Position numbers and translations under genes: made by a program | Shown here: positions 7,223 through 44,759 of the stretch, piece by piece | Layout: each line of letters begins with the position of its first letter | Position numbering within the stretch: the stretch's first letter is position 1 | The notes under the pieces: model-generated | What the model was told of the DNA's origin: nothing | What the model saw: the letters and a program-made list of their open reading frames with translations, nothing else | The model's database searches: none | DNA from: Bacteroidota bacterium | Lineage (GTDB): Bacteria; Bacteroidota; Bacteroidia; UKL13-3 | Direction: 5' to 3' | Assembly: GCA_027491085.1 (NCBI GenBank) | Contig: JAIXWW010000011.1 | Coordinates: forward strand, 433,151-497,150 | DNA: 64,000 nt

Positions 7223-9667
7223 ATGCTGAGATATAAGACAAAATTTATTTATTTATTAATAATGCTCCTTTCAACTTTTATGCACTTAAAGGCTCAGGTA
7301 GAGAGTGAAAAAGATAGTTTAGAATCATTATTACCATATGCTAAAGATAATCAACGAGCAGATATTTATATTGGATTAGCAGAAGCAATTAAACAAAATG
7401 ACACTTTAAATGCCATTAATTATGCAAAACAAGCTTTAAAAATATCCAATTCATTAAGTTATGATAAAGGTATAGCCGGTGCTAATATCATATTAGGTTA
7501 TATTGACCGAAACAATGGGAACTATAAAAATGCAAAAATAAGGTACTTGTTTGCAGTATCCTATGCATTAAAATCAAAGGATTTAAATACGATTGCTTGG
7601 GCATATCAAAACATGGGTAATTTGTATTATATACAATCGGATTATCCCAAAGCTATGCGCTACTATTTAGGGGCTTTAAAAAAGGGTGAAGAGGCTGGCA
7701 ATTTAAAGAGAATTGCATTAGCATCTAACCAAATTGGTTCATTATACTCAAGTATAAATGACACAGATAGAGCTGCTTTTTTTTATCAAAAGGCCTTCAA
7801 TATATTAAAAGATTTAGGAGACGAAATTGCATATGCTCGCATATCCACAAATTTAGGGAATATTTATAAAAGTAAAGGTGAGTTTATTAGGGCTTTATAT
7901 CATTACAACCAAAGTTTAGAAGTTTTTAGAAGAAATAAACTTCTTACAGATATATCAGCTGTTTTGAACAATGTTGGTACAATTTATTTGGCTCAAAAAA
8001 ATATTAAAAAGGCGTTCCCTTTTATTGCAGAATCATACCTAATAGATCTACAATCAAAAGACATGCTAGCAGTTGCCATTTCTTCGATGAACTTATCGAG
8101 CTATTATTTTGAAACTAAGAAAATTGATAGTGCCATTTTTTATGGGGAAATTTCATTGAATACGGCAAAAAACAACAACTTTGGACTTGAATACACTGAG
8201 GCCTGTTTGCAATTAAGTAAAATTTACAATTCAAAAGGAAATAAAGAAAGGGCTTTTTATTATTTAAATGAAAGCAATAATTCGCAAGTGCTAAGTGCAA
8301 ACAAAGGTGCAGAAATAGAGGGCGTAAGATCGGATTTTGAAAAGGCAAAAAAAGATGAAGTATTAAATAAACTTGATGCCGAAAATAAAGAAAGTAAAAG
8401 TACAGCTATAGAAAGTAAATTAAATTCACAAAAAAAGAATGTTTTATTGCTAGTTTTGGTATGTGTTATTGTATTTTTAATATTAATAAGTATTTTATTC
8501 TTCTACTTTTTAACACAAAAGAAAAAAACTAAAAATTTAGAAATTACATCTGCATCTAAAAGCAATATCCTGAATAGAATAAATCATGAATTAAGAACCC
8601 CATTAAATTCCTTAATTAATTACAGCTATTTGGCCAATGAAAGTAAAAATCTATCTGAACTAAGGGAATACCTTTCAGGTATCAATGCATCGAGCAATGA
8701 CTTGTTATTTAGTATGAATAATATTGTAAGTTATTTACAAATTGATGCAAAGAATGATTTAGTTTTTGAAGAGCATTTTGATTTCTTAGAGGTGTTAAAA
8801 TCAATATTTAGTACATTTCAAATCCAATGCAATCAAAAAGGAATTTTATTTTCACAGTTAGTTTCACCAGAATTACCAAGGTATTTGAAAGCTGATAAAA
8901 CGAAAATTACCACAATAATTCAAAATTTATTAAACAATGCACTTAAATTCAGTGAAAATGGTGTCATTAAAATTGAAATCAAACATCTTAACCAAGATAA
9001 AATTCAAAACTATACTAAGTGCTCCATTTTAATTTCGGTTACTGATGAAGGAAAGGGCCTTAATGGTAAAACTTTAAAGGATTTAATATTAAATACTAAA
9101 AAAGAAAATAATAACGGCTTTGGGCTTGGGTTATTCATTGTAAAAAAATATGTTGAAAAACTTAACGGTTCTTTTGAATTAACTAATAATGATACAATAG
9201 GCTGCAATGCAATTGTTAAATTTGAGTCTACTATTGACAACAAAGAAGATAATGAGGACACTATCTCTAGTTTAAACAAAATTAAGCTAAGTAAAAATTT
9301 ATCCATTTTATTGGTTGAAGACGACTTAACAAATAGTTATACTTTACAAAAAATATTAGAGCGTAAAGGATATAATGTAATTTGTGTAGATAAAGGAAAG
9401 GATGCTTTTACTGAATTGCTAAAAACATCCATTGATATTGTTCTAATTGATTTAGGTTTACCTGATATGAGTGGATTAGAAGTAGCTAAATGTATTAGGC
9501 TAGGAGGAGAATTCTCTCTAGAAAAAGACATTCCAATTATTGCTTTATCAGCCAATGCGGACCCAATAGAAATGCAAGATTGCGTAAAAATTGGAATTAA
9601 TGAATACCTAACCAAACCAATAAATAAAGAGTTGTTGATTAATAAAATGTACGAATTAGTTAAATAA
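7223..9667 (+). CDS. hybrid sensor histidine kinase/response regulator with periplasmic TPR repeats
   Basis: Signal peptide, TPR-like repeats, one TM helix, H-box NHELRTPLNSL, HATPase G-box GFGLGLFIV, C-terminal receiver domain (LLVEDD...DIVLIDLGLPDMSG...KP). Confidence 0.85.
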   Translation: MLRYKTKFIYLLIMLLSTFMHLKAQVESEKDSLESLLPYAKDNQRADIYIGLAEAIKQNDTLNAINYAKQALKISNSLSYDKGIAGANIILGYIDRNNGNYKNAKIRYLFAVSYALKSKDLNTIAWAYQNMGNLYYIQSDYPKAMRYYLGALKKGEEAGNLKRIALASNQIGSLYSSINDTDRAAFFYQKAFNILKDLGDEIAYARISTNLGNIYKSKGEFIRALYHYNQSLEVFRRNKLLTDISAVLNNVGTIYLAQKNIKKAFPFIAESYLIDLQSKDMLAVAISSMNLSSYYFETKKIDSAIFYGEISLNTAKNNNFGLEYTEACLQLSKIYNSKGNKERAFYYLNESNNSQVLSANKGAEIEGVRSDFEKAKKDEVLNKLDAENKESKSTAIESKLNSQKKNVLLLVLVCVIVFLILISILFFYFLTQKKKTKNLEITSASKSNILNRINHELRTPLNSLINYSYLANESKNLSELREYLSGINASSNDLLFSMNNIVSYLQIDAKNDLVFEEHFDFLEVLKSIFSTFQIQCNQKGILFSQLVSPELPRYLKADKTKITTIIQNLLNNALKFSENGVIKIEIKHLNQDKIQNYTKCSILISVTDEGKGLNGKTLKDLILNTKKENNNGFGLGLFIVKKYVEKLNGSFELTNNDTIGCNAIVKFESTIDNKEDNEDTISSLNKIKLSKNLSILLVEDDLTNSYTLQKILERKGYNVICVDKGKDAFTELLKTSIDIVLIDLGLPDMSGLEVAKCIRLGGEFSLEKDIPIIALSANADPIEMQDCVKIGINEYLTKPINKELLINKMYELVK

Positions 9668-9831
9668 AGCTGTTATATCAATTCATGATTTTAATTTTTT
9701 TTGCACAAAAAAGCTTTAAAACCAATTTATTATAAATTTTACAAAACCAATAAAAATATTTAGTGGCTTATAAAAACGCTAGTTTTATTTAAATAAAATA
9801 GCATATTTGCCACACTTTTAAAAAAATAAAA

Positions 9832-10716
9832 ATGGCAGTTTTAGTTAATAACGATTCAAAAGTAATTGTTCAAGGATTTACAGGTAGCGAAGGAACTTTC
9901 CACGCCCAACAAATGATAGAATACGGAACCAACGTTGTTGGTGGTGTTACTCCCGGTAAAGGTGGTCAAACTCATTTAGATAGACCTGTATTTAATACAG
10001 TTAAAGATGCTGTAGAAAAAGCAAGTGCTAATACATCAATTATATTTGTGCCACCAGCTTTTGCTGCTGATGCAATTATGGAAGCAGCTGATGCTGGAAT
10101 TAAAGTAATTATTTGTATTACTGAAGGTATTCCGGTAGCTGATATGATTCCAGTAAAAGAATATATCAAATCGCGCGGTTGTACTTTAATTGGTCCAAAC
10201 TGCCCAGGAGTTATCACTCCAGGACAAGCAAAAGTTGGTATTATGCCGGGTTTTGTTTTCAAATCGGGTAGAGTTGGTATTGTTTCTAAATCTGGTACTT
10301 TAACATACGAAGCAGCTGACCAAATTGTAAAAGCTGGTTTAGGTATTTCTACTGCTATTGGTATTGGTGGTGATCCAATTATTGGAACTCCAACTAAAGA
10401 TGCAGTTGAATTATTAATGAACGATCCTGAAACTGATGCCATTATTATGATTGGTGAAATTGGTGGAAGTTACGAAGCTGATGCTGCACGTTGGATTAAA
10501 GCTAATGGTAATAAAAAACCAGTAGTGGGTTTTATAGCTGGACAAACTGCTCCTGCTGGCCGTAGAATGGGTCATGCTGGTGCAATTGTTGGTGGACATG
10601 ATGATACAGCTGCTGCTAAAATGAAAATTATGGCAGAATGTGGTGTTCATGTTGTTGATTCTCCAGCAGAAATTGGTTCAAAAATGGCTGAAGTATTAGG
10701 CTTAAAAGCTAACTAA
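9832..10716 (+). CDS. sucD: succinate--CoA ligase subunit alpha
   Basis: [24 protein letters not shown]...GVTPGKGG is typical of SucD. 294 aa. Confidence 0.95.
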
Positions 10717-10738: not shown

Positions 10739-10774
10739 AAGAAAAGCTAATTCAATATTAGCTTTTCTTTTTTA
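10739..10774 (+). terminator. rho-independent terminator after sucD
   Basis: Perfect hairpin aaagaaaagctaat/attagcttttcttt followed by a T-run. Confidence 0.65.
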
Positions 10775-10809
10775 GGCCTCATAGTTCAATGGATAGAATA
10801 GATGTTTCC
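10775..10809 (+). repeat. 35-nt partial copy of the tRNA-Arg(CCT) 5' half (island left boundary, att-like)
   Basis: Exact 35/35 identity with 33861-33895. Identity stops inside the anticodon loop. Confidence 0.8.
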
Positions 10810-11548: not shown

Positions 11549-12140
11549 TTTTATTTATTTATTTAAACGAAAATACTTATCGGTTGATAATTATTTTGAC
11601 ATCAATTAAATAAATGAAATATAGTAATACATAATTATAATATAACTTCAGATTAACGAATTAACATTCCTAAAATTAGAAAAGAATTTAACCAGAAAGT
11701 TTGGATAAAAGGATAAACAAAATCAGAACCAATTAAATTATAATAATCCCCCAACAGCGATTATTTAGTTTAATAATAAAAGGAACACTTCAAAAAACAA
11801 AACAAAAAGCTTTTAAATGTTTCCTTAGTTACCAATTTTTTTAGGTGATAACAATCCGATTAGCAGTATTCTATATTAATTTGTTTCTAAATCACTGCAA
11901 GTTCTGCTTGCAACTTTCAGGTAATTAATCCAATAAGAGATTCAAACCTTGTAAATAATCCCTTTAAAAAAGTATATTGATTTTTAACTTTGATTCATTT
12001 GATATGAAGTTTAATAATGAATCTAAAGATTAAATCCTTAAATTCATTATTAACGAATCTTATTTATCCGATTATTTTGAAAGTTTCCATTCCTGAATGA
12101 AAACATAATTGAGTTTGCAAGTATGGATATATTTAAATCC

Positions 12141-20194: not shown

Positions 20195-21658
20195 ATGACA
20201 AAAGTATCAATCATCTTAATGCCACAAGGTAAAAACTCTAATACGGGTAGAATTTGTAAAATGATTTCAGAAAAAGGAAAAGTCCACAGGTTATCAATCG
20301 GATATACAATACCAATAGACGACTGGTGTGTTAAAACTAAAAGAGTTAAAAATACCAATTCAAATTCAACAATTATAAATTCAATCATAGAAAATATTAT
20401 GTCGGGAGACGTTACTAAACACAAAAAATATGAAGATTGTATTCTATGCTTTATGGAAAACGAGTTGGAATTAGGTCATTTAGATAAAACAATAAAATAT
20501 AGTACTTACAAAAAGTATAATACTATTGCAAAGTCTTTCAGAAAGGCAATGGTGAAATTGGAAATGCTCAAGATAACAATAAACGATGTTATAGGCCTAG
20601 AAAAACTAAAATCAATAATAAGTATCATCTCTATCAACGAAAGTAGAAATGGCAAAAGAAAAACCACCTTAAATAATTATTTGGTGGTCTTTTCTACATA
20701 TGTAAAAAAATGGTTTCAGAAGAATAACGGAAGTCCAACTGCTGATTTTAGCTTTATTCATAAAGAATCAAAAAAAGTGATACTCGGACACGCCAATTAT
20801 ATTACAAAAGATGAACTTACAATATTTGAAAATTATTATCCCAAAGGTATTAAAAATGGAACTATTCAAACAATTACTAAATCCATCTTTCTTAGCCAAT
20901 ATTATATCGGTGGTATAAGAATAAGCGACATTCTAACCCTTACAAATTCACAATTTAAAGCAAAAGGAATACTTATTAGAATGAGGAAAAATGGAGAAAC
21001 AAGAATCTATCCATATTCATTTGAACTCGTATTGGCATTAAGACCACTTTATCCCTACCAATATAACTCAGTAATTGAAAACTTAAATTTAGGGTCAATA
21101 AAATTACCTGCAACAATTGTAGCTGCAATGATTCGTTCTAATATAGAACTCCACAATTATAACTTAGAAGATATTGATAAAAAGATTAGTCAATTAGAAT
21201 ATTCATTATCACTTGAACACAAACAACTTGTTGATGAACTTGAAAGGTTAAAACAAATAATCAAAGGCTTAATTAAAGAAGAGTTTTTCAAACAAATACA
21301 AAACTTAACCGAAGGTTTTATCTTTCCATTGTTAGAATACGATATGTTCAAAAACCATTTAGATAGACCTGATTTATTTGACAAAGATTTAAGCTATGCA
21401 ATCCATAGAGCTACTTGTAAATATAACTCTAATCTGAAAGTCATTTGTAAAACAATAGGAATTAACCGAAAACTAACAAGTCATTCACCCAGACATTCAA
21501 TAGCTCTTCACTTAATGGAAAGGGGAGCAACCACACCCATCATTCAAGATGTTTTAGGACAAAGGAACCTTTCCTCAACGGCTGTATATCTTCAACAAAG
21601 ATTACCTTCCAATAATATTGGTGTGGGAATGGGATTGATACACGGAAGTAAACTGTAA
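20195..21658 (+). CDS. tyrosine-type site-specific integrase (Bacteroidota type with N-terminal arm-binding domain)
   Basis: C-terminal catalytic region HSPRHSIALHLMERG...LGQRNLSSTAVYLQ (R, HxxR, Tyr nucleophile). N-terminus KVSIILMPQGK is typical of Bacteroidota integrases. Confidence 0.9.
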   Translation: MTKVSIILMPQGKNSNTGRICKMISEKGKVHRLSIGYTIPIDDWCVKTKRVKNTNSNSTIINSIIENIMSGDVTKHKKYEDCILCFMENELELGHLDKTIKYSTYKKYNTIAKSFRKAMVKLEMLKITINDVIGLEKLKSIISIISINESRNGKRKTTLNNYLVVFSTYVKKWFQKNNGSPTADFSFIHKESKKVILGHANYITKDELTIFENYYPKGIKNGTIQTITKSIFLSQYYIGGIRISDILTLTNSQFKAKGILIRMRKNGETRIYPYSFELVLALRPLYPYQYNSVIENLNLGSIKLPATIVAAMIRSNIELHNYNLEDIDKKISQLEYSLSLEHKQLVDELERLKQIIKGLIKEEFFKQIQNLTEGFIFPLLEYDMFKNHLDRPDLFDKDLSYAIHRATCKYNSNLKVICKTIGINRKLTSHSPRHSIALHLMERGATTPIIQDVLGQRNLSSTAVYLQQRLPSNNIGVGMGLIHGSKL

Positions 21659-21682
21659 AACCTATTATAGATTTATAAGTAA
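21601..21682 (+). repeat. direct repeat copy 1 (integrase 3' end)
   Basis: ~82 bp, ~95% identical to 27831-27912. A further 15-bp match (cttcatatcatttga) follows after a 61-bp indel. Confidence 0.8.
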
Positions 21683-22010
21683 ATTAAATTACTGCTTATA
21701 TGATTAATATTCAGGAGAGTGCCTATACTATAGACAAAACTAACTTCATATCATTTGAATCTATGTTATTTTGTTATTTTTGTTATTGAATTTATTATGG
21801 TGCTTGGTTTTGAGGAAGCATTTACATAAAAGTATTTTTTTGAAAGGACGTGTATATGTCCACGTAAATTTGACTTTTTTTTATTGCATAATATATTTGT
21901 CAATGATTTCTCGCAAGTAGTTTTATCGATTTATTGCTAATTACCAAAATCATTAGTAGTGGTAAAACAAATGTTCATTGACATGGAGCCAAAATTTATT
22001 TTTTAGTTGA

Positions 22011-22670
22011 TTGGCGATTTTATTAAAACTAAAAAAGAAAATGAATATAACACAAAAAAGAAGCCCATTAAAATCCCTTTTAACGAATTATGATTTCCGA
22101 CATTATCTTAAAGATGGGAGAGTTAAAAAATTAGTTTGGTATTTGCTAGAGCTTGACAAAAAACAAAATATAGAAATAAATGAAGAAATAATTCTAGAAA
22201 TTTATGATAACTTGACGCATTATAAAACTCAAGAAATCTCAGTTCCAAGATTTGTTTATCATGGAAGTCATAATCTGAACAGAGAATCTATACTTTCAAA
22301 AGGCTTAATTGCATTTGAGAATCGTTGTACAGGAGTTTTTGCAAGTATTCCCAATAGTTTCAATCCAATGGAAGCTTCTCATTTTTATCCCTCAGTTTGT
22401 GGCGATACCGACTTATCTGAATCTAATTTAGATTTTTGGCAGATAGATACATTTCAACTACCCCCATTGACTTGGTTTGTCGACCCATATACACCTTCGC
22501 ATAGAAGCCTATGGATTTTCACATTCAATAATATTCCTCCTTTTGCATTAAAACTATACAAGGCAAAAAGAATTGGAAATTACTTAGACAGGTTTTCATT
22601 ATATCCGATTGAAGATGTAAACAGCGAATTGAAAAAAATAAAAAAGAAGAAAATTGAATTGTATTACTAA
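22011..22670 (+). CDS. putative PARP-like (H-Y-E class) ADP-ribosyltransferase domain protein
   Basis: YHGSHNLNRESILSKGLIAF resembles PARP catalytic [22 protein letters not shown] (H-G-S NAD-binding motif). C-terminal Y..IEDVN..LKK resembles the PARP Glu-containing region. Possible real start at Met 22041. Confidence 0.4.
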   Translation: MAILLKLKKKMNITQKRSPLKSLLTNYDFRHYLKDGRVKKLVWYLLELDKKQNIEINEEIILEIYDNLTHYKTQEISVPRFVYHGSHNLNRESILSKGLIAFENRCTGVFASIPNSFNPMEASHFYPSVCGDTDLSESNLDFWQIDTFQLPPLTWFVDPYTPSHRSLWIFTFNNIPPFALKLYKAKRIGNYLDRFSLYPIEDVNSELKKIKKKKIELYY

Positions 22671-23193
22671 AAAAACAAATAGATATAATATGGAAAATCA
22701 GAAAAACGAAAGAAAAATTTTATATATAGACATGGATGGTGTTCTAGCTGATTTTGAATCATCAATTAAAAGATACTTACCTGAATGGGATAACTTATCT
22801 GATGAAGAAAAGGGAGATAGAACCGATGATATTTGCGGTTCAGTACCAAACTTTTTCCTTGAATTGGAACCTATTCATGGAGCATTAGATGCTGTTAAAA
22901 ACTTAGCAGAATTTTTTGATGTTTACTTTCTATCGGCAGCTATGTGGAATGTGCCTGAAAGTTATACAGAGAAAAGACTTTGGATTGAAAAACATTTTGA
23001 CAGCTCTTTTAGAAAGAAACTAATCCTTACACACAGAAAAAACTTAAACATTGGAGATTACTTAATTGACGATAGGACATCACATGGTGCAGGCGATTTT
23101 ATGGGTGAACACATTCATTTTGGAACCCAAAAATTTCCCAATTGGACAGTAGTTGAAGAATACCTAAGTAAAGTGGTTATGAACAATCAATAA
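22654..23193 (+). CDS. 5'(3')-deoxyribonucleotidase-like HAD hydrolase (NT5C family)
   Basis: HAD motif I IDMDGVLADF (DxD), downstream LIDDR aspartates. Overlaps the upstream ORF. 179 aa. Confidence 0.7.
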   Translation: MNCITKKTNRYNMENQKNERKILYIDMDGVLADFESSIKRYLPEWDNLSDEEKGDRTDDICGSVPNFFLELEPIHGALDAVKNLAEFFDVYFLSAAMWNVPESYTEKRLWIEKHFDSSFRKKLILTHRKNLNIGDYLIDDRTSHGAGDFMGEHIHFGTQKFPNWTVVEEYLSKVVMNNQ

Positions 23194-23205
23194 AAAATAA
23201 ATTAT

Positions 23206-23961
23206 ATGAAAATAATATTTCAGCATCCGCCAACAGGAACTAAAGATCCTTTTAAAGATTTTGAACCGTGGAATCCTCGCCATTATCCGAAAGGCGGGGG
23301 AGTTTATATTTATGGATTAAAATTACATATAGATAATGAGCTAAAATTTGTTCCACTTTATGTTGGGAAACATAATACTAATGTTGGTAGAAGAGTATTT
23401 GAACATTATTATCAGGAAAGAATGCCTGGTAATAGCTGTAAAGAAATATTTGATTTAACCAACATTAAATCATTAGATGATATTAGGACTCTTTATGAAG
23501 CCATGAATAAATATGATAGTGTGAAAGGGAAACCTTTAGTTAGGATTAGTAACGAAAAACTGATTTGGTTTAATGATAAAGATTTCTTTAATACATACAT
23601 TTCAAAAAGCTTAGGTAAATATGTCTCTTTAAGTAATTATATATCAGGTTCTGGTCATCTTGCAAGTTTGTATCCAAAAGTTGGCGATTTTGATTCAATG
23701 ATTTCTAAAGATAAAACCATTTCAGAATATATTGATAACCTTCGCAATAAAATAATAGCTACTAAATCCTTATATAATGAAAATTTCTACTATCTCTATG
23801 TAGATAATATTTCCAGAGAAGATCTTTTAATTTATGAAAATTCAACAAAAATTGCCCTACAAGAGCTTGGAATATTTACAACGGCTTGGGCTAATAAAGA
23901 GGGAAATTCATCAATAATAAACTTTGATGAAATTTTTTCTAAGTTGATAAATCTAAAATAA
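23206..23961 (+). CDS. hypothetical protein with N-terminal GIY-YIG-like motif
   Basis: GGGVYIYGL...PLYVGKHNTNVGRRVFEHY matches the GIY-(10-11)-YIG...R...E pattern. 251 aa. Confidence 0.4.
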   Translation: MKIIFQHPPTGTKDPFKDFEPWNPRHYPKGGGVYIYGLKLHIDNELKFVPLYVGKHNTNVGRRVFEHYYQERMPGNSCKEIFDLTNIKSLDDIRTLYEAMNKYDSVKGKPLVRISNEKLIWFNDKDFFNTYISKSLGKYVSLSNYISGSGHLASLYPKVGDFDSMISKDKTISEYIDNLRNKIIATKSLYNENFYYLYVDNISREDLLIYENSTKIALQELGIFTTAWANKEGNSSIINFDEIFSKLINLK

Positions 23962-24064
23962 ACGTTTAAAGTGATGATGTTGCTTAAAAATCAGTTTGAT
24001 ATTTTAATTTAGAAATTCCAATTAGTAAAAAAAAGACATTTAAATATTTTAAAATACAACATAT

Positions 24065-24973
24065 ATGAAAACTACAAATTTTGAAGAAATCTTAAAGAAA
24101 GTTGAAACCTTATTTAATACTCACCAAATGAACCTAACTGGTACGTCCAACTATGAGGATAAAAGTGGTATTTTTTTCCATAAACTCGAACAAAAAGTTA
24201 TTCCAATTTATTCCCAAGATGAACTTATTAAATTTAAAGAGGGAGAACCATCACCTATTCTAGGTGCTTATTTAATTGAAACAGAATCTAACCCACGCTT
24301 TATGCTCTTTAATGATTCAATAAACGATTTGAGTATAAAATATGCTGATGAAAGGTCAGTCATTAACGGAGTGGATATTAGAAATTCGTCAGGGTTTATT
24401 ACAGCTGAACATCCAGATCCACCAGGCCTTTATCCTGAGGAAGCCAAAAACCGCATTGAAATTATAGTAAAACTTCAACTCCATATTTTTCATACTCTTC
24501 ATTATGCTTTTGGAGCATGGAAAACTCCCTTTTTTACAGAATTAAGCATAAGTTATATAAATAACTTAGTTAATTGTATTACAAAAAGAACTATTAATGA
24601 TGATAAAAATTTACTAGACTGCTACGCCTATATAAACAAAATTCCTGCTGAAGAACTAATTATCGAAAATTATTCTCAATTTTCAAAATATATTTTTGCC
24701 TTTGACCAATCCGATTGGAAGGAGATAGTTAATCTAGGCGTCTTAATTAATAAAATTCCTGAAAGCATTTGGAGTGGTTTTGTTCAAGCAAAACCAAAGG
24801 TAGCATTAAAAGACTATTTGTTAGATCATAAATCAGAAATTCAAGATTCATTTATTAATTGGGCAAAGAATAATACAGATGAACAACCTTTCTCTAAAAT
24901 TAAAGAATATTTAACTATTGAAAATACTGAAAAGTATCGTGGTAGTATAAAAGCAGGAGGATTCGGTATATGA
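24065..24973 (+). CDS. hypothetical protein
   Basis: 302-aa ORF, no motif recognised. Stop overlaps the next start. Confidence 0.4.
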   Translation: MKTTNFEEILKKVETLFNTHQMNLTGTSNYEDKSGIFFHKLEQKVIPIYSQDELIKFKEGEPSPILGAYLIETESNPRFMLFNDSINDLSIKYADERSVINGVDIRNSSGFITAEHPDPPGLYPEEAKNRIEIIVKLQLHIFHTLHYAFGAWKTPFFTELSISYINNLVNCITKRTINDDKNLLDCYAYINKIPAEELIIENYSQFSKYIFAFDQSDWKEIVNLGVLINKIPESIWSGFVQAKPKVALKDYLLDHKSEIQDSFINWAKNNTDEQPFSKIKEYLTIENTEKYRGSIKAGGFGI

Positions 24974-25632
24974 ACTCCCTCACCCTCATAGAACAATCTG
25001 GGTTCAAAATCAATCCACCTAAAATTGTATTTGTGCCATTTACAGAAGAAAAACTTCAAGGGATTAGCACTAGAGAGTTTGGTAGTCCTTACGAAAATAT
25101 GGATGACAAAATTGGTGGCAATTTGTATTTATGGCTGCAACAAACCAATTCTGTTTTATGGCAAATAAGTGATGAACAGGTATTGATTTTTGCAAATACA
25201 GTTGAAAAGTTAGGTGAGCGTTTTGCCACACTAATGAAGTTACCAAAAGAAGAGGGTAAAGCGGTATGTATAGAAATGGTTAAATCCTTAGCCATTTCTA
25301 CTTATATTATTGAAAATAGTATCTTTAAAATACAAGGCAATTGGCTGTTAAAATACCGCAATAAAGAACTAGGGGGTACTCTTCAATACTTCTTGCTTTG
25401 GCTCACCAAACATGAGCTTCAAGGGAATATTCAAGCCAACAAAGCCTTGGATATTTACATCGAAAAATTTGCCAAGAATGTTAATTTGGATTTGTTTAGT
25501 AATTACCCTTCAAGTGAAATTATGGAGGCATTTATTTATTGCTTTTTTAGAGGAAATAACGAAACAAAAATGCTATTTGCTAAACTAGAAAATCCTAACT
25601 ATTCTCTAAATGAACTCATTACTATTCCATAA
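24970..25632 (+). CDS. hypothetical protein
   Basis: 220-aa ORF, translationally coupled to the previous ORF. Confidence 0.4.
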   Translation: MNSLTLIEQSGFKINPPKIVFVPFTEEKLQGISTREFGSPYENMDDKIGGNLYLWLQQTNSVLWQISDEQVLIFANTVEKLGERFATLMKLPKEEGKAVCIEMVKSLAISTYIIENSIFKIQGNWLLKYRNKELGGTLQYFLLWLTKHELQGNIQANKALDIYIEKFAKNVNLDLFSNYPSSEIMEAFIYCFFRGNNETKMLFAKLENPNYSLNELITIP

Positions 25633-26077
25633 TAAAAGCACAATGAATTCAGATAAATGGAAGATTTATGTTAATGGCTATAAAAATGAAATAGACCTAT
25701 ACCATCGTATTGATAGTGATTGGCTAGAAGGGGGTATAAAATTATATTTGGGAAATGAGGAATATAGCATTCCCTTAAGTCTATTATTAGTGGAAGAGTT
25801 ACATGATTTTCTCAATTGGTTAATAAAAAAACAAAGTGGTATTGAAACCATTCCAATTTTTCAATTTATGGATACAGAACTTTGTTTTGAAACAGTTACT
25901 TCAGATAATGAATTTTATTTAAAATTGAATTTAAACAGAATCAATAAAAAGCAAATCTCTATAATATCGCAAATTTCAGGACCTCAGTCGGAAATGCGTT
26001 CAATAATTGAAGAATTAAACTCGCTAATAACTAAATATCCTTGCCGTTGTAACAATCAACATATTATACTTAAATAA
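25610..26077 (+). CDS. hypothetical protein
   Basis: 155-aa ORF overlapping the previous ORF. Ends convergent with the NT5C-like paralog. Confidence 0.35.
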   Translation: MNSLLFHNKSTMNSDKWKIYVNGYKNEIDLYHRIDSDWLEGGIKLYLGNEEYSIPLSLLLVEELHDFLNWLIKKQSGIETIPIFQFMDTELCFETVTSDNEFYLKLNLNRINKKQISIISQISGPQSEMRSIIEELNSLITKYPCRCNNQHIILK

Positions 26078-26618
26078 TAAGTTTCCCTTTATTTTTTGGT
26101 TCAAATGTTTCAGGCCAAAACACTTCATAATTATCAATTAGGTATACCAATACTTTGTCCCAGTCTTTAAACTCCTCACTGCCTAAAGGAATGAGTTCAT
26201 TTATAAATTTATCCGAACCATTATTTCCTTTGCGGTCTATCAAATAATGGCCCACTTGCAAATCTTTTCTGTGGCTTAAAATTAGTTTTTTTCTAAAGTT
26301 TTCTCCAAAGTGATTTTCAACCCAAATTCTCTTATCAGTATACATATTGGGTATATCCCAACAAGGCGCAGAAATAAAATAAATATCGTAAAAATTACTC
26401 AAGCTATTAATGGATTGAATAGCAAGATTGATAGGTGATAGATTTTGATAATAATGAGGGTATTCTAAATATACGTTTTTAAGGGCAACTTCTTTTTCTG
26501 TTTCAAATAAATGCTCCCAATTATTTACTCTTTTCATTACATTATCAGAAAGATCAACCACTATATCGTCAAGTTCTATTAAGAGTAGTTTTTTACGTAA
26601 AGTTACTTTCTTTATCAT
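26070..26618 (-). CDS. NT5C-like HAD paralog, probably catalytically degenerate
   Basis: Clear paralog of 22654-23193 (YFISAPCWDIPNMYTDKRIWVENHF...KKLILSHRKDL versus YFLSAAMWNVPESYTEKRLWIEKHF...KKLILTHRKNL). Motif I is IELDD instead of IDMDG. Confidence 0.6.
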   Translation of the reverse strand: MIKKVTLRKKLLLIELDDIVVDLSDNVMKRVNNWEHLFETEKEVALKNVYLEYPHYYQNLSPINLAIQSINSLSNFYDIYFISAPCWDIPNMYTDKRIWVENHFGENFRKKLILSHRKDLQVGHYLIDRKGNNGSDKFINELIPLGSEEFKDWDKVLVYLIDNYEVFWPETFEPKNKGKLII

Positions 26619-26629
26619 ATGGCTAAGTT

Positions 26630-27187
26630 TTAAAATTTAATAAAGTTTTGCAACCAGATAGTGGCACATTCAAAACGATTTTTAGAATTACCTAAAACTA
26701 CTTTTCTAACTGAAGTGTGAGTTAAGTTGGGGTTCAAGATGTTTGATCTGTGTCCTCTACTTTGTGAAGAGTAATCTATTAAAGCTATTAAGATTGAGGC
26801 TCTAATGCTAGTACCATATGTGATATTTTCACCTATACTTTTGCAAGGGATTTTCAACCATGAATAAGTTCTATCGTGATCCATATCTCTTTTTGTGCTA
26901 TCCGCTAAGTGTTTGTTAGCTTCTTTACGAACTTCCTCAGAGATTTTGTAAGCAGGAAGGGGTTTCATTGAATCCAACAATGGGATAAGTTCCTTGATAG
27001 CTATTTCTCTTTCTGGTGCAAATCTTGTTGAATTTGCGTAAGCTTTAACATATTGAATGTAAGCTTTAGGATTGGTTCTTATCAGGTTGATTTCGTTTAT
27101 GTATGCCAGTTCTTCTGCTGAATGTTGTCCAAAACAACAAATAGGTGCAAAAAAAATAAATATAACTATGTTTCTTATTTTGTCCAT
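26630..27187 (-). CDS. secreted CAP-domain (YkwD-like) protein
   Basis: Signal peptide. SRGHRSNILNPNLTH matches the bacterial CAP/YkwD signature GHR.NILNP. Confidence 0.6.
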   Translation of the reverse strand: MDKIRNIVIFIFFAPICCFGQHSAEELAYINEINLIRTNPKAYIQYVKAYANSTRFAPEREIAIKELIPLLDSMKPLPAYKISEEVRKEANKHLADSTKRDMDHDRTYSWLKIPCKSIGENITYGTSIRASILIALIDYSSQSRGHRSNILNPNLTHTSVRKVVLGNSKNRFECATIWLQNFIKF

Positions 27188-27744
27188 GATCTGTTAAGGT
27201 ATATATGAAAATCAGTATAAATATCCTTTAATAACTTAATATCTCTTCGCAAGGTTCTTTCAGTAACTTGGTTTTCTTCACAATATTTATCTATATCTAA
27301 TTGTCTATTTTTTAACGTAGAAACATATAAATTAATTATTCTTCTATACTTTTGAAGCATTAGGCTTTGCCTATTTGATTGTTGCCGAATAAAATCTTTC
27401 TTATTCATAATTATCTTATCTAAACCCTCCAATTTTTCATTTATTATAATAGTATATTTTTTAATTGAACTATCTAATTTTAAATGAGGTGCTCCAATAA
27501 GGACTATAGATAATTCGTTAATTTGTTCATAGGGTACTATTTGATTAAAGTCTTCCAAAATTTTTTCATTTAGTAAATTAGAATCTACAATTATCAAAAA
27601 TGAAGGAACGGCAATAAAATCTTCAATTTTGGTAACCTCATAGTATTCAATGTCACTTTCTGATTTAATGGTTTTTAACTGTTCAATTAATAACTCATTT
27701 TTACTATAAATAAGGATTGTATTCTCTTTGTTAAATTGATTCAT
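27175..27744 (-). CDS. putative transcriptional regulator (receiver-like N-terminus, C-terminal HTH)
   Basis: C-terminal VTERTLRRDIKLLK resembles a DeoR/HTH_11-type helix-turn-helix. Overlaps the CAP gene by 13 nt. Confidence 0.4.
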   Translation of the reverse strand: MNQFNKENTILIYSKNELLIEQLKTIKSESDIEYYEVTKIEDFIAVPSFLIIVDSNLLNEKILEDFNQIVPYEQINELSIVLIGAPHLKLDSSIKKYTIIINEKLEGLDKIIMNKKDFIRQQSNRQSLMLQKYRRIINLYVSTLKNRQLDIDKYCEENQVTERTLRRDIKLLKDIYTDFHIYLNRSWTK

Positions 27745-27830
27745 ATTTCGAAAATAATGCTATTTTCAATTATTAAAAGTTTATTAGGTCCTATATTTGT
27801 CCATTATACCATTTCATAAACTATTTTTCT

Positions 27831-27927
27831 ATTACCTTCCAACAATATTGGTGTAGGAATGGGGTTGATACACGGAAGTAAACTGTATAACCTATTATAG
27901 ATTTATAAGTAACTTCATATCATTTGA
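27831..27927 (+). repeat. direct repeat copy 2: remnant of an integrase 3' end (no integrase ORF attached)
   Basis: Encodes ...PSNNIGVGMGLIHGSKL, matching the last ~19 codons of the integrase at 20195-21658, then a shared downstream segment. Confidence 0.8.
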
Positions 27928-33639: not shown

Positions 33640-33860
33640 TTATTCAGTTTATTATCAAAACTTTTTATTCGTTTAACTTCCTATCTATTGACACCAAGTC
33701 AAAAACCCCTTATTAATTATTAATGCACCTTACTTAATTTTTTTGCATTCTAGGGTGCAAATTGATTACTTTTGAAGACTAAAATTGCAATAATGCAAGA
33801 AAATTAACTAGATTTGTAAGTAAGTAAATCCATAAATCACTCTTTTTCAAGTTTTTATAT

Positions 33861-33932
33861 GGCCTCATAGTTCAATGGATAGAATAGATGTTTCCTAAAC
33901 ATTTGATATGAGTTCGATTCTCGTTGAGGCTA
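33861..33932 (+). tRNA. tRNA-Arg (anticodon CCT)
   Basis: Manual cloverleaf: acceptor GGCCTCA/TGAGGCT (G1-U wobble), D-stem GTTC/GAAT, anticodon stem GATGT/ACATT with loop TTCCTAA (U33, anticodon CCT, A37), T-loop TTCGATT. Confidence 0.8.
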
Positions 33933-33951
33933 CTATTATTAATTAGAGTAC

Positions 33952-44718: not shown

Positions 44719-44723
44719 TAAAA

Positions 44724-44759
44724 AAAGCCCATTTGAAAATTTTCAAATGGGCTTTTTTG
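44724..44759. terminator. bidirectional terminator between convergent genes
   Basis: Perfect hairpin gcccatttgaaaa/ttttcaaatgggc flanked by an A-run and a T-run. Confidence 0.65.

Follow-up and report, generated by a model that had tools for sequence, protein, structure and literature searches.

The NT5C family (Pfam PF06941) includes the human deoxyribonucleotidases mdN/NT5M and cdN/NT5C and the S. epidermidis protein of PDB entry 3bwv. In the standard mechanism of such HAD phosphatases, the Asp nucleophile of motif I forms a phosphoaspartate, the Asp two positions further on (Asp+2) serves as general acid/base, a Ser and a Lys hold the phosphate, and two Asp of motif IV position Mg2+; the second of this pair, Asp176 in mdN, is the Mg2+ ligand. 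Phages also encode deoxyribonucleotidases (PHROG 2643; T4-like Vibrio phages nt-1 and VH7D among them), which are single-copy and annotated as auxiliary metabolic genes. HAD pseudophosphatases, for example the FCP1-like Tim50, keep the fold, have lost the catalytic Asp and act by binding; they belong to other HAD subfamilies, are eukaryotic and come without an active paralog in a mobile cassette. Our limited literature search found no description of an NT5C-type pseudophosphatase paired with an active copy. Here we analyze two NT5C-type genes, A and B, carried by a 64,000-nucleotide stretch of a Bacteroidota contig (JAIXWW010000011.1; hereafter the window), for which the closest genome is a metagenome-assembled genome (MAG) of an uncultured freshwater Bacteroidia from Lake Mendota.

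Gene A (22690-23193, forward strand) and gene B (26070-26618, reverse strand) are convergent and separated by about 3 kb. An initial annotation of the window had presented them as a paralogous pair on opposite strands, the second with a substituted catalytic motif, and both open reading frames are found where it placed them. A and B have in common with the human and staphylococcal proteins their family and fold, and A shares the four HAD motifs as well. B differs from all of these proteins, none of which has a Glu nucleophile, an Arg at the Mg-binding Asp or a conserved C-terminal tail. The phage enzymes are 42-46% identical to the C-terminal two-thirds of B, and both A and B match phrog_2643 and phrog_420; no paired dead copy was seen for the phage deoxyribonucleotidases.

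Gene B has lost two catalytic residues of its family

Direct translation gives the motif I block LIELDDI (26582-26562) and the motif IV block LIDRK (26243-26229) in B, compared with IDMDGV (22726-22743) and LIDDR (23062-23076) in A, in agreement with the motifs first read by eye. Glu15 of B (codon 26576-26574) therefore stands in place of the motif I nucleophile Asp, and Arg129 (codon 26234-26232) in place of the second motif IV Asp. The remaining catalytic-site residues are kept, namely Asp17 (Asp+2 of motif I), Ser83 in motif II (YFISAP), Lys118 in motif III (HRKD) and Asp128, the first Asp of motif IV. Other family-conserved residues have drifted: HIHFG has become LIPLG, and the tryptophan of the PxW motif is missing in one ortholog (P0002, see below). 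B thus lacks two defining catalytic features of NT5C, the motif I nucleophile and the motif IV Asp pair.

A wrong register in the by-eye comparison could have produced the same picture, with the catalytic Asp residues conserved in both proteins. This is excluded by three agreeing lines of evidence. BLASTP aligns A and B without a gap over 152 residues (38% identity, 67% positives, E 1e-44), more than the roughly 100 residues first proposed; the profile alignment to human cytosolic deoxyribonucleotidase places its VDMDG and LIDDK in the same columns as the motif blocks of A and B; and the structure predicted for B has Glu15 at the C-terminal end of strand 1, the place of the nucleophile in HAD proteins. 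Both proteins also pass the Pfam NT5C profile (gathering score 24.8), A with 55.5 bits and B with 32.0 bits. Searches of NCBIfam returned nothing for either protein.

The AlphaFold (AF2) model of B has a mean predicted local distance difference test score (pLDDT) of 86.5 and a predicted template modelling score of 0.81. Its best PDB matches in Foldseek are NT5C deoxyribonucleotidases (3bwv, 2i7d, 2jao and 1mh9, each with probability 1.00), with which sequence identity is only 14-23%. B is accordingly predicted to have the fold of the NT5C family, a HAD Rossmann-like core with a small helical cap.

The substitutions are rare and B is under purifying selection

We searched 1.84 billion representative proteins with B using phmmer and aligned the best 150 of the 1050 relatives recovered, together with earlier matches, to give about 165 examined family members. 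The canonical Asp/Asp/Asp/Asp set is present in 131 of these, and most non-canonical members are fragments truncated at the N-terminus. Glu at the nucleophile position is confined to B, P0001, P0002 and P0043, the last being a 68-residue fragment that does not cover the Mg-ligand position. Among full-length members of this alignment, Glu is paired with Arg in B, P0001 and P0002 only. A metagenome scan yielded a further find, a short contig (L020) that supplies a fourth full-length case.

P0001, L020 and P0002 make up the ortholog set of B. P0001 comes from the Lake Mendota Bacteroidia MAG (97% identity; loci L002-L005), and P0002, from the metagenome contig L001, is more distant (63-64% identity). 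Every ortholog has IELDD and LIDR. For B in the window compared with L001, the proportion of nonsynonymous sites that differ (pN) is 0.206 and that of synonymous sites (pS) 0.766, an uncorrected pN/pS of 0.27 (Fisher p 3e-26) with synonymous sites saturated; L001 and L020 give 0.23. Glu15 is encoded by GAA in the window and by GAG in both L001 and L020, and for Arg129 the corresponding pair is CGC and CGA, so that both residues have been held through synonymous change.

A second conserved element lies at the C-terminus, where the B-specific tail Y164-EVFWPETF-x-PK175 is invariant at 11 of its 12 positions, compared with 63% identity over the whole protein. The tail is unstructured in the AlphaFold model, which suggests a docking motif. 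The open reading frame is intact in four independent samples. B is therefore under purifying selection: decay as a pseudogene is ruled out by the pN/pS values, the synonymous codon changes at Glu15 and Arg129, the invariant tail and the intact reading frames. The initial annotation had spoken of a dead copy retained beside an active enzyme, and retention is borne out by this selection and by the sampled B loci: the four that extend far enough to be informative, from three lineages, all carry A.

The search also recovered an unusual relative, P0017, a 508-residue metagenomic protein (L026, 680-2206) with two tandem NT5C domains and an extra N-terminal domain. In the first domain the nucleophile Asp and the second Asp of motif IV are missing (IGLDG, LVDS); the second domain is canonical. 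P0017 resembles the A and B pair in that a domain altered at both of the positions changed in B accompanies a canonical one. It differs in being a single polypeptide, in its Gly and Ser replacements, in the additional N-terminal domain and in its genomic context. By its motifs, P0017 would be an independent counterpart, within the NT5C family, of a dead domain combined with a live one.

Gene A is a canonical member with a history of its own

The open reading frame listed for A begins with the TTG at 22654. Its likely start is the ATG at 22690, 19 nt past the stop of the upstream gene p219, and the A orthologs in related loci are all called at 167 residues from the same ATG. Its motifs II (YFLSAA) and III (HRKN) contain the expected Ser and Lys. 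A adds an ordinary member to PF06941. Since every residue of the standard mechanism is present, A is most likely an active 5'(3')-(deoxy)nucleotide phosphatase, Mg-dependent as its family assignment implies. A-like enzymes that are 39-50% identical occur in 14 other taxa from many phyla, where they are solitary within 10 kb. A genome scan with A as query found the A and B pair in one species only, that of the Lake Mendota MAG.

The description of A and B as paralogs holds in part. They are homologous, and the top single-domain phmmer matches of B are A-type proteins (148 and 136 bits, the next match scoring 133). However, despite this rank, A as the closest relative of B is unsupported: in a neighbour-joining tree A was the sister of B in 0 of 200 bootstraps, and B sat on a long, unplaced branch, with a mean distance to canonical members of 1.33 compared with 0.90 for A. 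The word paralog fits A and B as homologs that share a genome, which falls short of demonstrating a local duplication, and B as a recent in-situ duplicate of A finds no support in the bootstraps.

Synonymous divergence between the window and L001 (21835-27807) varies along the segment. pS is about 0.25 for p219 and A (0.27 for A itself), 0.34 for the CAP/YkwD-like gene, 0.56-0.61 for p189 and p220, and reaches 0.77 for B. Such a mosaic implies recombination between the two halves of the segment, and the roughly three-fold difference between A and B indicates that they have had separate histories.

The two genes lie in a putative mobile cassette

The genes around A and B are arranged as two convergent operons (Table 1). 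The first runs from p219 through A and a set of variable genes to p220 and the WapI-like gene, and the second from p189 through the CAP/YkwD-like gene to B. The CAP/YkwD-like gene is directly upstream of B with an 11-nt gap, and its product has, by eye, a hydrophobic, signal-peptide-like N-terminus. The 3' end of B overlaps the adjoining WapI-like gene by 8 nt. A scan for sigma-70 promoters and terminators found no enrichment over shuffled sequence and is uninformative for this organism.

Table 1. Genes and repeats of the segment that carries A and B, by position in the window.
Feature	Coordinates	Strand	Remarks
Tyrosine integrase, 487 aa	20195..21658	+	Pfam Phage_integrase E 8e-16; directly upstream of the cassette
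Direct repeat copy 1, 85 nt	21601..21685		Last 58 nt of the integrase gene and 27 nt downstream
p219, 209 aa	22041..22670	+	Conserved upstream partner of A; 88-100% identical in L001-L005
A, NT5C-family 5'(3')-deoxyribonucleotidase-like HAD phosphatase, 167 aa	22690..23193	+	All four HAD motifs intact
p251, variable-slot gene	23206..23961	+	Family also in NT5C-free cassettes
p302	24065..24973	+	Absent from L001-L005
p220	24970..25632	+	Accompanies the WapI-like gene as a conserved partner at many loci
WapI-like immunity-family protein, 155 aa	25610..26077	+	Pfam PF24716 E 3.5e-12
B, divergent NT5C-fold paralog, probable pseudophosphatase, 182 aa	26070..26618	-	Glu15 and Arg129 substitutions; C-terminal tail YEVFWPETFEPK
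CAP/YkwD-like protein, 185 aa	26630..27187	-	Pfam CAP E 1.8e-4; NCBIfam YkwD weak
p189, probable regulator with C-terminal HTH	27175..27744	-	Weak HTH_11/DeoR/Mga matches; opens the p189-CAP-B operon
Direct repeat copy 2, 85 nt	27831..27915		94% identical to copy 1; right cassette boundary

The segment from p219 to p189, of about 6 kb, is bracketed by the two 85-nt direct repeats and adjoins the integrase, whose match to Arm-DNA-bind_5 is weak and below threshold (19.2 bits, cut-off 22.6). Homology between the window and the related MAG (L002) extends from 21737 to 27872, except for the variable middle, and of the 85-nt repeat the MAG shares only the first 42 nt, at the cassette end. The repeat looks like an att-type duplication. 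The same cassette is found in three different genomic neighbourhoods. Given the bracketing repeats, the homology limits and these different neighbourhoods, the segment with A and B behaves as a mobile cassette. Its variable middle consists of p251 and p302 in the window, of other genes in the MAG and of a five-gene DUF6175 operon in L001.

Homologs of p219, CAP, p251, p220, WapI and p189 are also present in more distant loci (L021-L025), which have no NT5C gene. Because these related cassettes are free of NT5C genes, A and B are lineage-specific additions to a wider, essentially unannotated cassette family. Three of the NT5C-free cassettes span 4686-10141 in L021, 4561-9113 in L022 and 3325-9118 in L024, with conflict-type neighbours (cpYpsA, HipA, ADP-ribosylglycohydrolase and UvrD). 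The p189 homolog of L021 has a match to HTH_Mga (E 3e-4), a helix-turn-helix (HTH) domain.

In L002, positions 8081-9989 contain p189, CAP185, a 61-residue piece of the p189 C-terminus, another CAP paralog (191 aa, 61% identity) and then B. Compared with the simple p189-CAP185-B order of the window (26630-27744), this partial tandem duplication indicates recent recombination beside B.

We compared the cassette with the recombinase-associated acquired interbacterial defence (AID; rAID-1) clusters of Bacteroidales. The defining criteria of the latter are a XerD-like tyrosine recombinase at the 5' end that shares 44% or more identity with BF9343_RS08045 and, downstream of it, two or more codirectional low-GC genes with immunity-gene homologs among them (bioRxiv 10.1101/471110). 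Reminiscent of rAID-1 are the integrase followed by an array of small genes with an immunity-family gene, the repeats and the signs of mobility: in the window six codirectional genes of about 30% GC, one of them WapI-like, follow the integrase, in a host genome that is itself only 32-35% GC. Unlike rAID-1, the cassette is split into two convergent operons where a single codirectional array would be expected, with B, CAP and p189 on the opposite strand, and a single immunity-family match. The layout resembles rAID-1; membership is not established.

Other cassette genes were examined for their families. p219, listed as an open reading frame from a TTG at 22011 and with an ATG at 22041, has homologs in three clusters only, with a C-terminal region of about 145 residues that is almost invariant and N-termini that differ. 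Its motif RFVYHGS..NRESILSKGL gives a weak, consistent and sub-threshold match to the first of the NAD-binding motifs in Tpt1/KptA and PARP1, members of the ADP-ribosyltransferase (ART) superfamily (Pfam E 0.14; PDB profiles E 0.06-0.09 for Tpt1 and 0.25-0.9 for PARP1, all through this one motif). The second and third positions of the ART triad (H-Y-E or H-H-h) are not conserved, and the AF2 model is unusable (pLDDT 39). A match of p219 to the T1 domain of the Shaw K+ channel (E 0.005-0.013) is not believed without support from a fold. The p251 family has a strongly conserved N-terminus (MKIxFxHPPTGT...GVYIYG...PLxVG...R); a by-eye resemblance to GIY-YIG nucleases (GVYIYG...YVG...R) was unsupported by Pfam or PDB profile searches.

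PADLOC reported one insignificant TIR-effector match, for A, and no known defence system. The viral contigs of IMG/VR yielded no B-type protein, and GenBank phages contain canonical phage deoxyribonucleotidases only. With p219 likewise not found in plasmids, a phage or plasmid origin of the cassette was rejected.

At a larger scale, two direct copies of a 43-nt sequence from the 5' part of tRNA-Arg (10768-10809 and 33853-33895; tRNA-Arg-CCT at 33861-33933) flank a low-GC island (26-30%) of about 23 kb, from 10.8 to 33.9 kb. The island contains RadC, a serine resolvase, a ParB-N6/N4 methylase, the integrase, the cassette and a DUF6175/Fib_succ_major operon. Self-BLAST of the window also revealed a perfect 38-nt palindrome at 44721-44758 and a 43-nt palindrome, 88% complementary, at 12011-12053.

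Discussion

The explanation that we favour, at about an even chance of being right, is that B is a non-catalytic pseudophosphatase that acts by binding a nucleotide-like ligand, a protein partner or both. Expressed from the operon of the HTH regulator p189, the CAP/YkwD-like gene and B, a protein with Glu15 and Arg129 would most likely be incapable of Mg-dependent phosphoryl transfer, and binding may involve the conserved C-terminal tail. The expected inactivity follows from the requirement of the mechanism for an Asp nucleophile and Mg2+, from the additional loss of a metal ligand and from a precedent in another HAD phosphatase, Pah1, in which the charge-conserving nucleophile mutation D398E abolishes activity (PMC12357310). 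Asp-to-Asn variants of NT5C enzymes have been crystallised with a bound deoxynucleoside monophosphate, mdN D41N at the nucleophile and cdN D12N at the second Asp of motif I (1z4i, 2jao), which sets a precedent for ligand binding in the absence of turnover. The earlier term "catalytically dead" is thus well founded as far as two residues needed for the canonical Mg-dependent HAD mechanism are missing; that B is inactive is drawn from its motifs and from Pah1.

Several considerations weigh against this explanation. A Glu carboxylate together with an Arg could in principle support an altered chemistry. The retention of four of the six catalytic-site residues could reflect inheritance rather than selection for ligand binding, given that it is seen in three diverged sequences. 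Finally, the surrounding cassette offers no pathway context.

A partner role is a tentative alternative, which we consider possible and on balance unlikely: B would form an asymmetric live/dead heterodimer with A and tune or inhibit its nucleotidase activity. Mammalian NT5C enzymes are homodimers, and the PDB entries 2i7d and 3bwv each have two chains. A accompanies B at every locus long enough to show it while A-like enzymes of other taxa stand alone, B has its best single-domain matches among A-type proteins, and the unrelated P0017 fuses a degenerate domain, with the same two positions lost, to a canonical one. However, the two genes belong to different, convergent operons, the contrast in synonymous divergence (0.27 for A and 0.77 for B) points to separate histories, and P0017 is a single metagenomic observation.

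Less probable is that B, and perhaps A, is an orphan immunity protein or decoy in a polyimmunity-type island, where, independently of A, it would bind an incoming toxin or the nucleotide product of one and so neutralise the toxin. The adjoining WapI-like immunity-family gene is consistent with such a role, as are the similarities of the integrase, low GC and small-gene array to the recombinase-associated AID clusters (bioRxiv 10.1101/471110) and the HipA, ADP-ribosylglycohydrolase and cpYpsA genes near related loci. On the other side, no toxin gene was identified, PADLOC gave no meaningful match, and B shares its operon with a regulator and a signal-peptide-like CAP protein, outside the codirectional array. 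The accessible part of the polymorphic-toxin survey PMC3482391 makes no mention of a nucleotidase, phosphatase or deoxyribonucleotidase. The antitoxin-like role named in the initial annotation attracted no evidence that points specifically to it.

We rank lower still the possibility that B remains an enzyme with altered chemistry through Glu15 and Arg129, for example a metal-independent phosphatase or another hydrolase. Strong purifying selection on B, the specific conservation of Glu and Arg, and the retention of Asp17, Ser83, Lys118 and Asp128 would fit an active protein of this kind. Yet an Asp-to-Glu change at the nucleophile inactivates the HAD enzyme in which it was tested (PMC12357310), the Mg ligand is missing in B, no canonical member among the approximately 165 examined has Glu at this position, and the drift extends to LIPLG and, in P0002, to the lost PxW tryptophan.

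A broader scenario, which we regard as improbable, would have an undescribed mobile conflict cassette recruit a live/dead NT5C pair, with A depleting or detoxifying deoxynucleotides, for example during phage attack or intoxication, and B acting as a nucleotide-sensing brake or decoy. It would take in the ART-like p219, the signal-peptide-like CAP protein, p251, p220 with the WapI-like protein, and the HTH regulator. That B is a functionless, decaying relic of a duplicated gene, as its long branch and missing catalytic residues might suggest, is effectively refuted by the selection described above, by Glu15 and Arg129 being kept through synonymous changes, by the C-terminal tail and by a reading frame intact in the four independent samples.

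With regard to nomenclature, public annotations name B-type proteins "5'(3')-deoxyribonucleotidase" or "5'-nucleotidase", labels that would be wrong if B is inactive. On present evidence B should rather be described as a probable NT5C-fold pseudoenzyme than as a deoxyribonucleotidase. Practical consequences stay modest for as long as neither a phenotype nor a ligand is found. The finding also draws attention to a recurrent, almost entirely unannotated mobile cassette in Bacteroidota and, if the conflict-cassette scenario were true, the live/dead pair would represent a novel type of nucleotide-pool defence, regulated by a pseudoenzyme. For the family itself, an NT5C pseudoenzyme kept by selection, with an active paralog and with P0017 as a counterpart, would be a clean bacterial case of a HAD phosphatase turned into a binding or regulatory protein.

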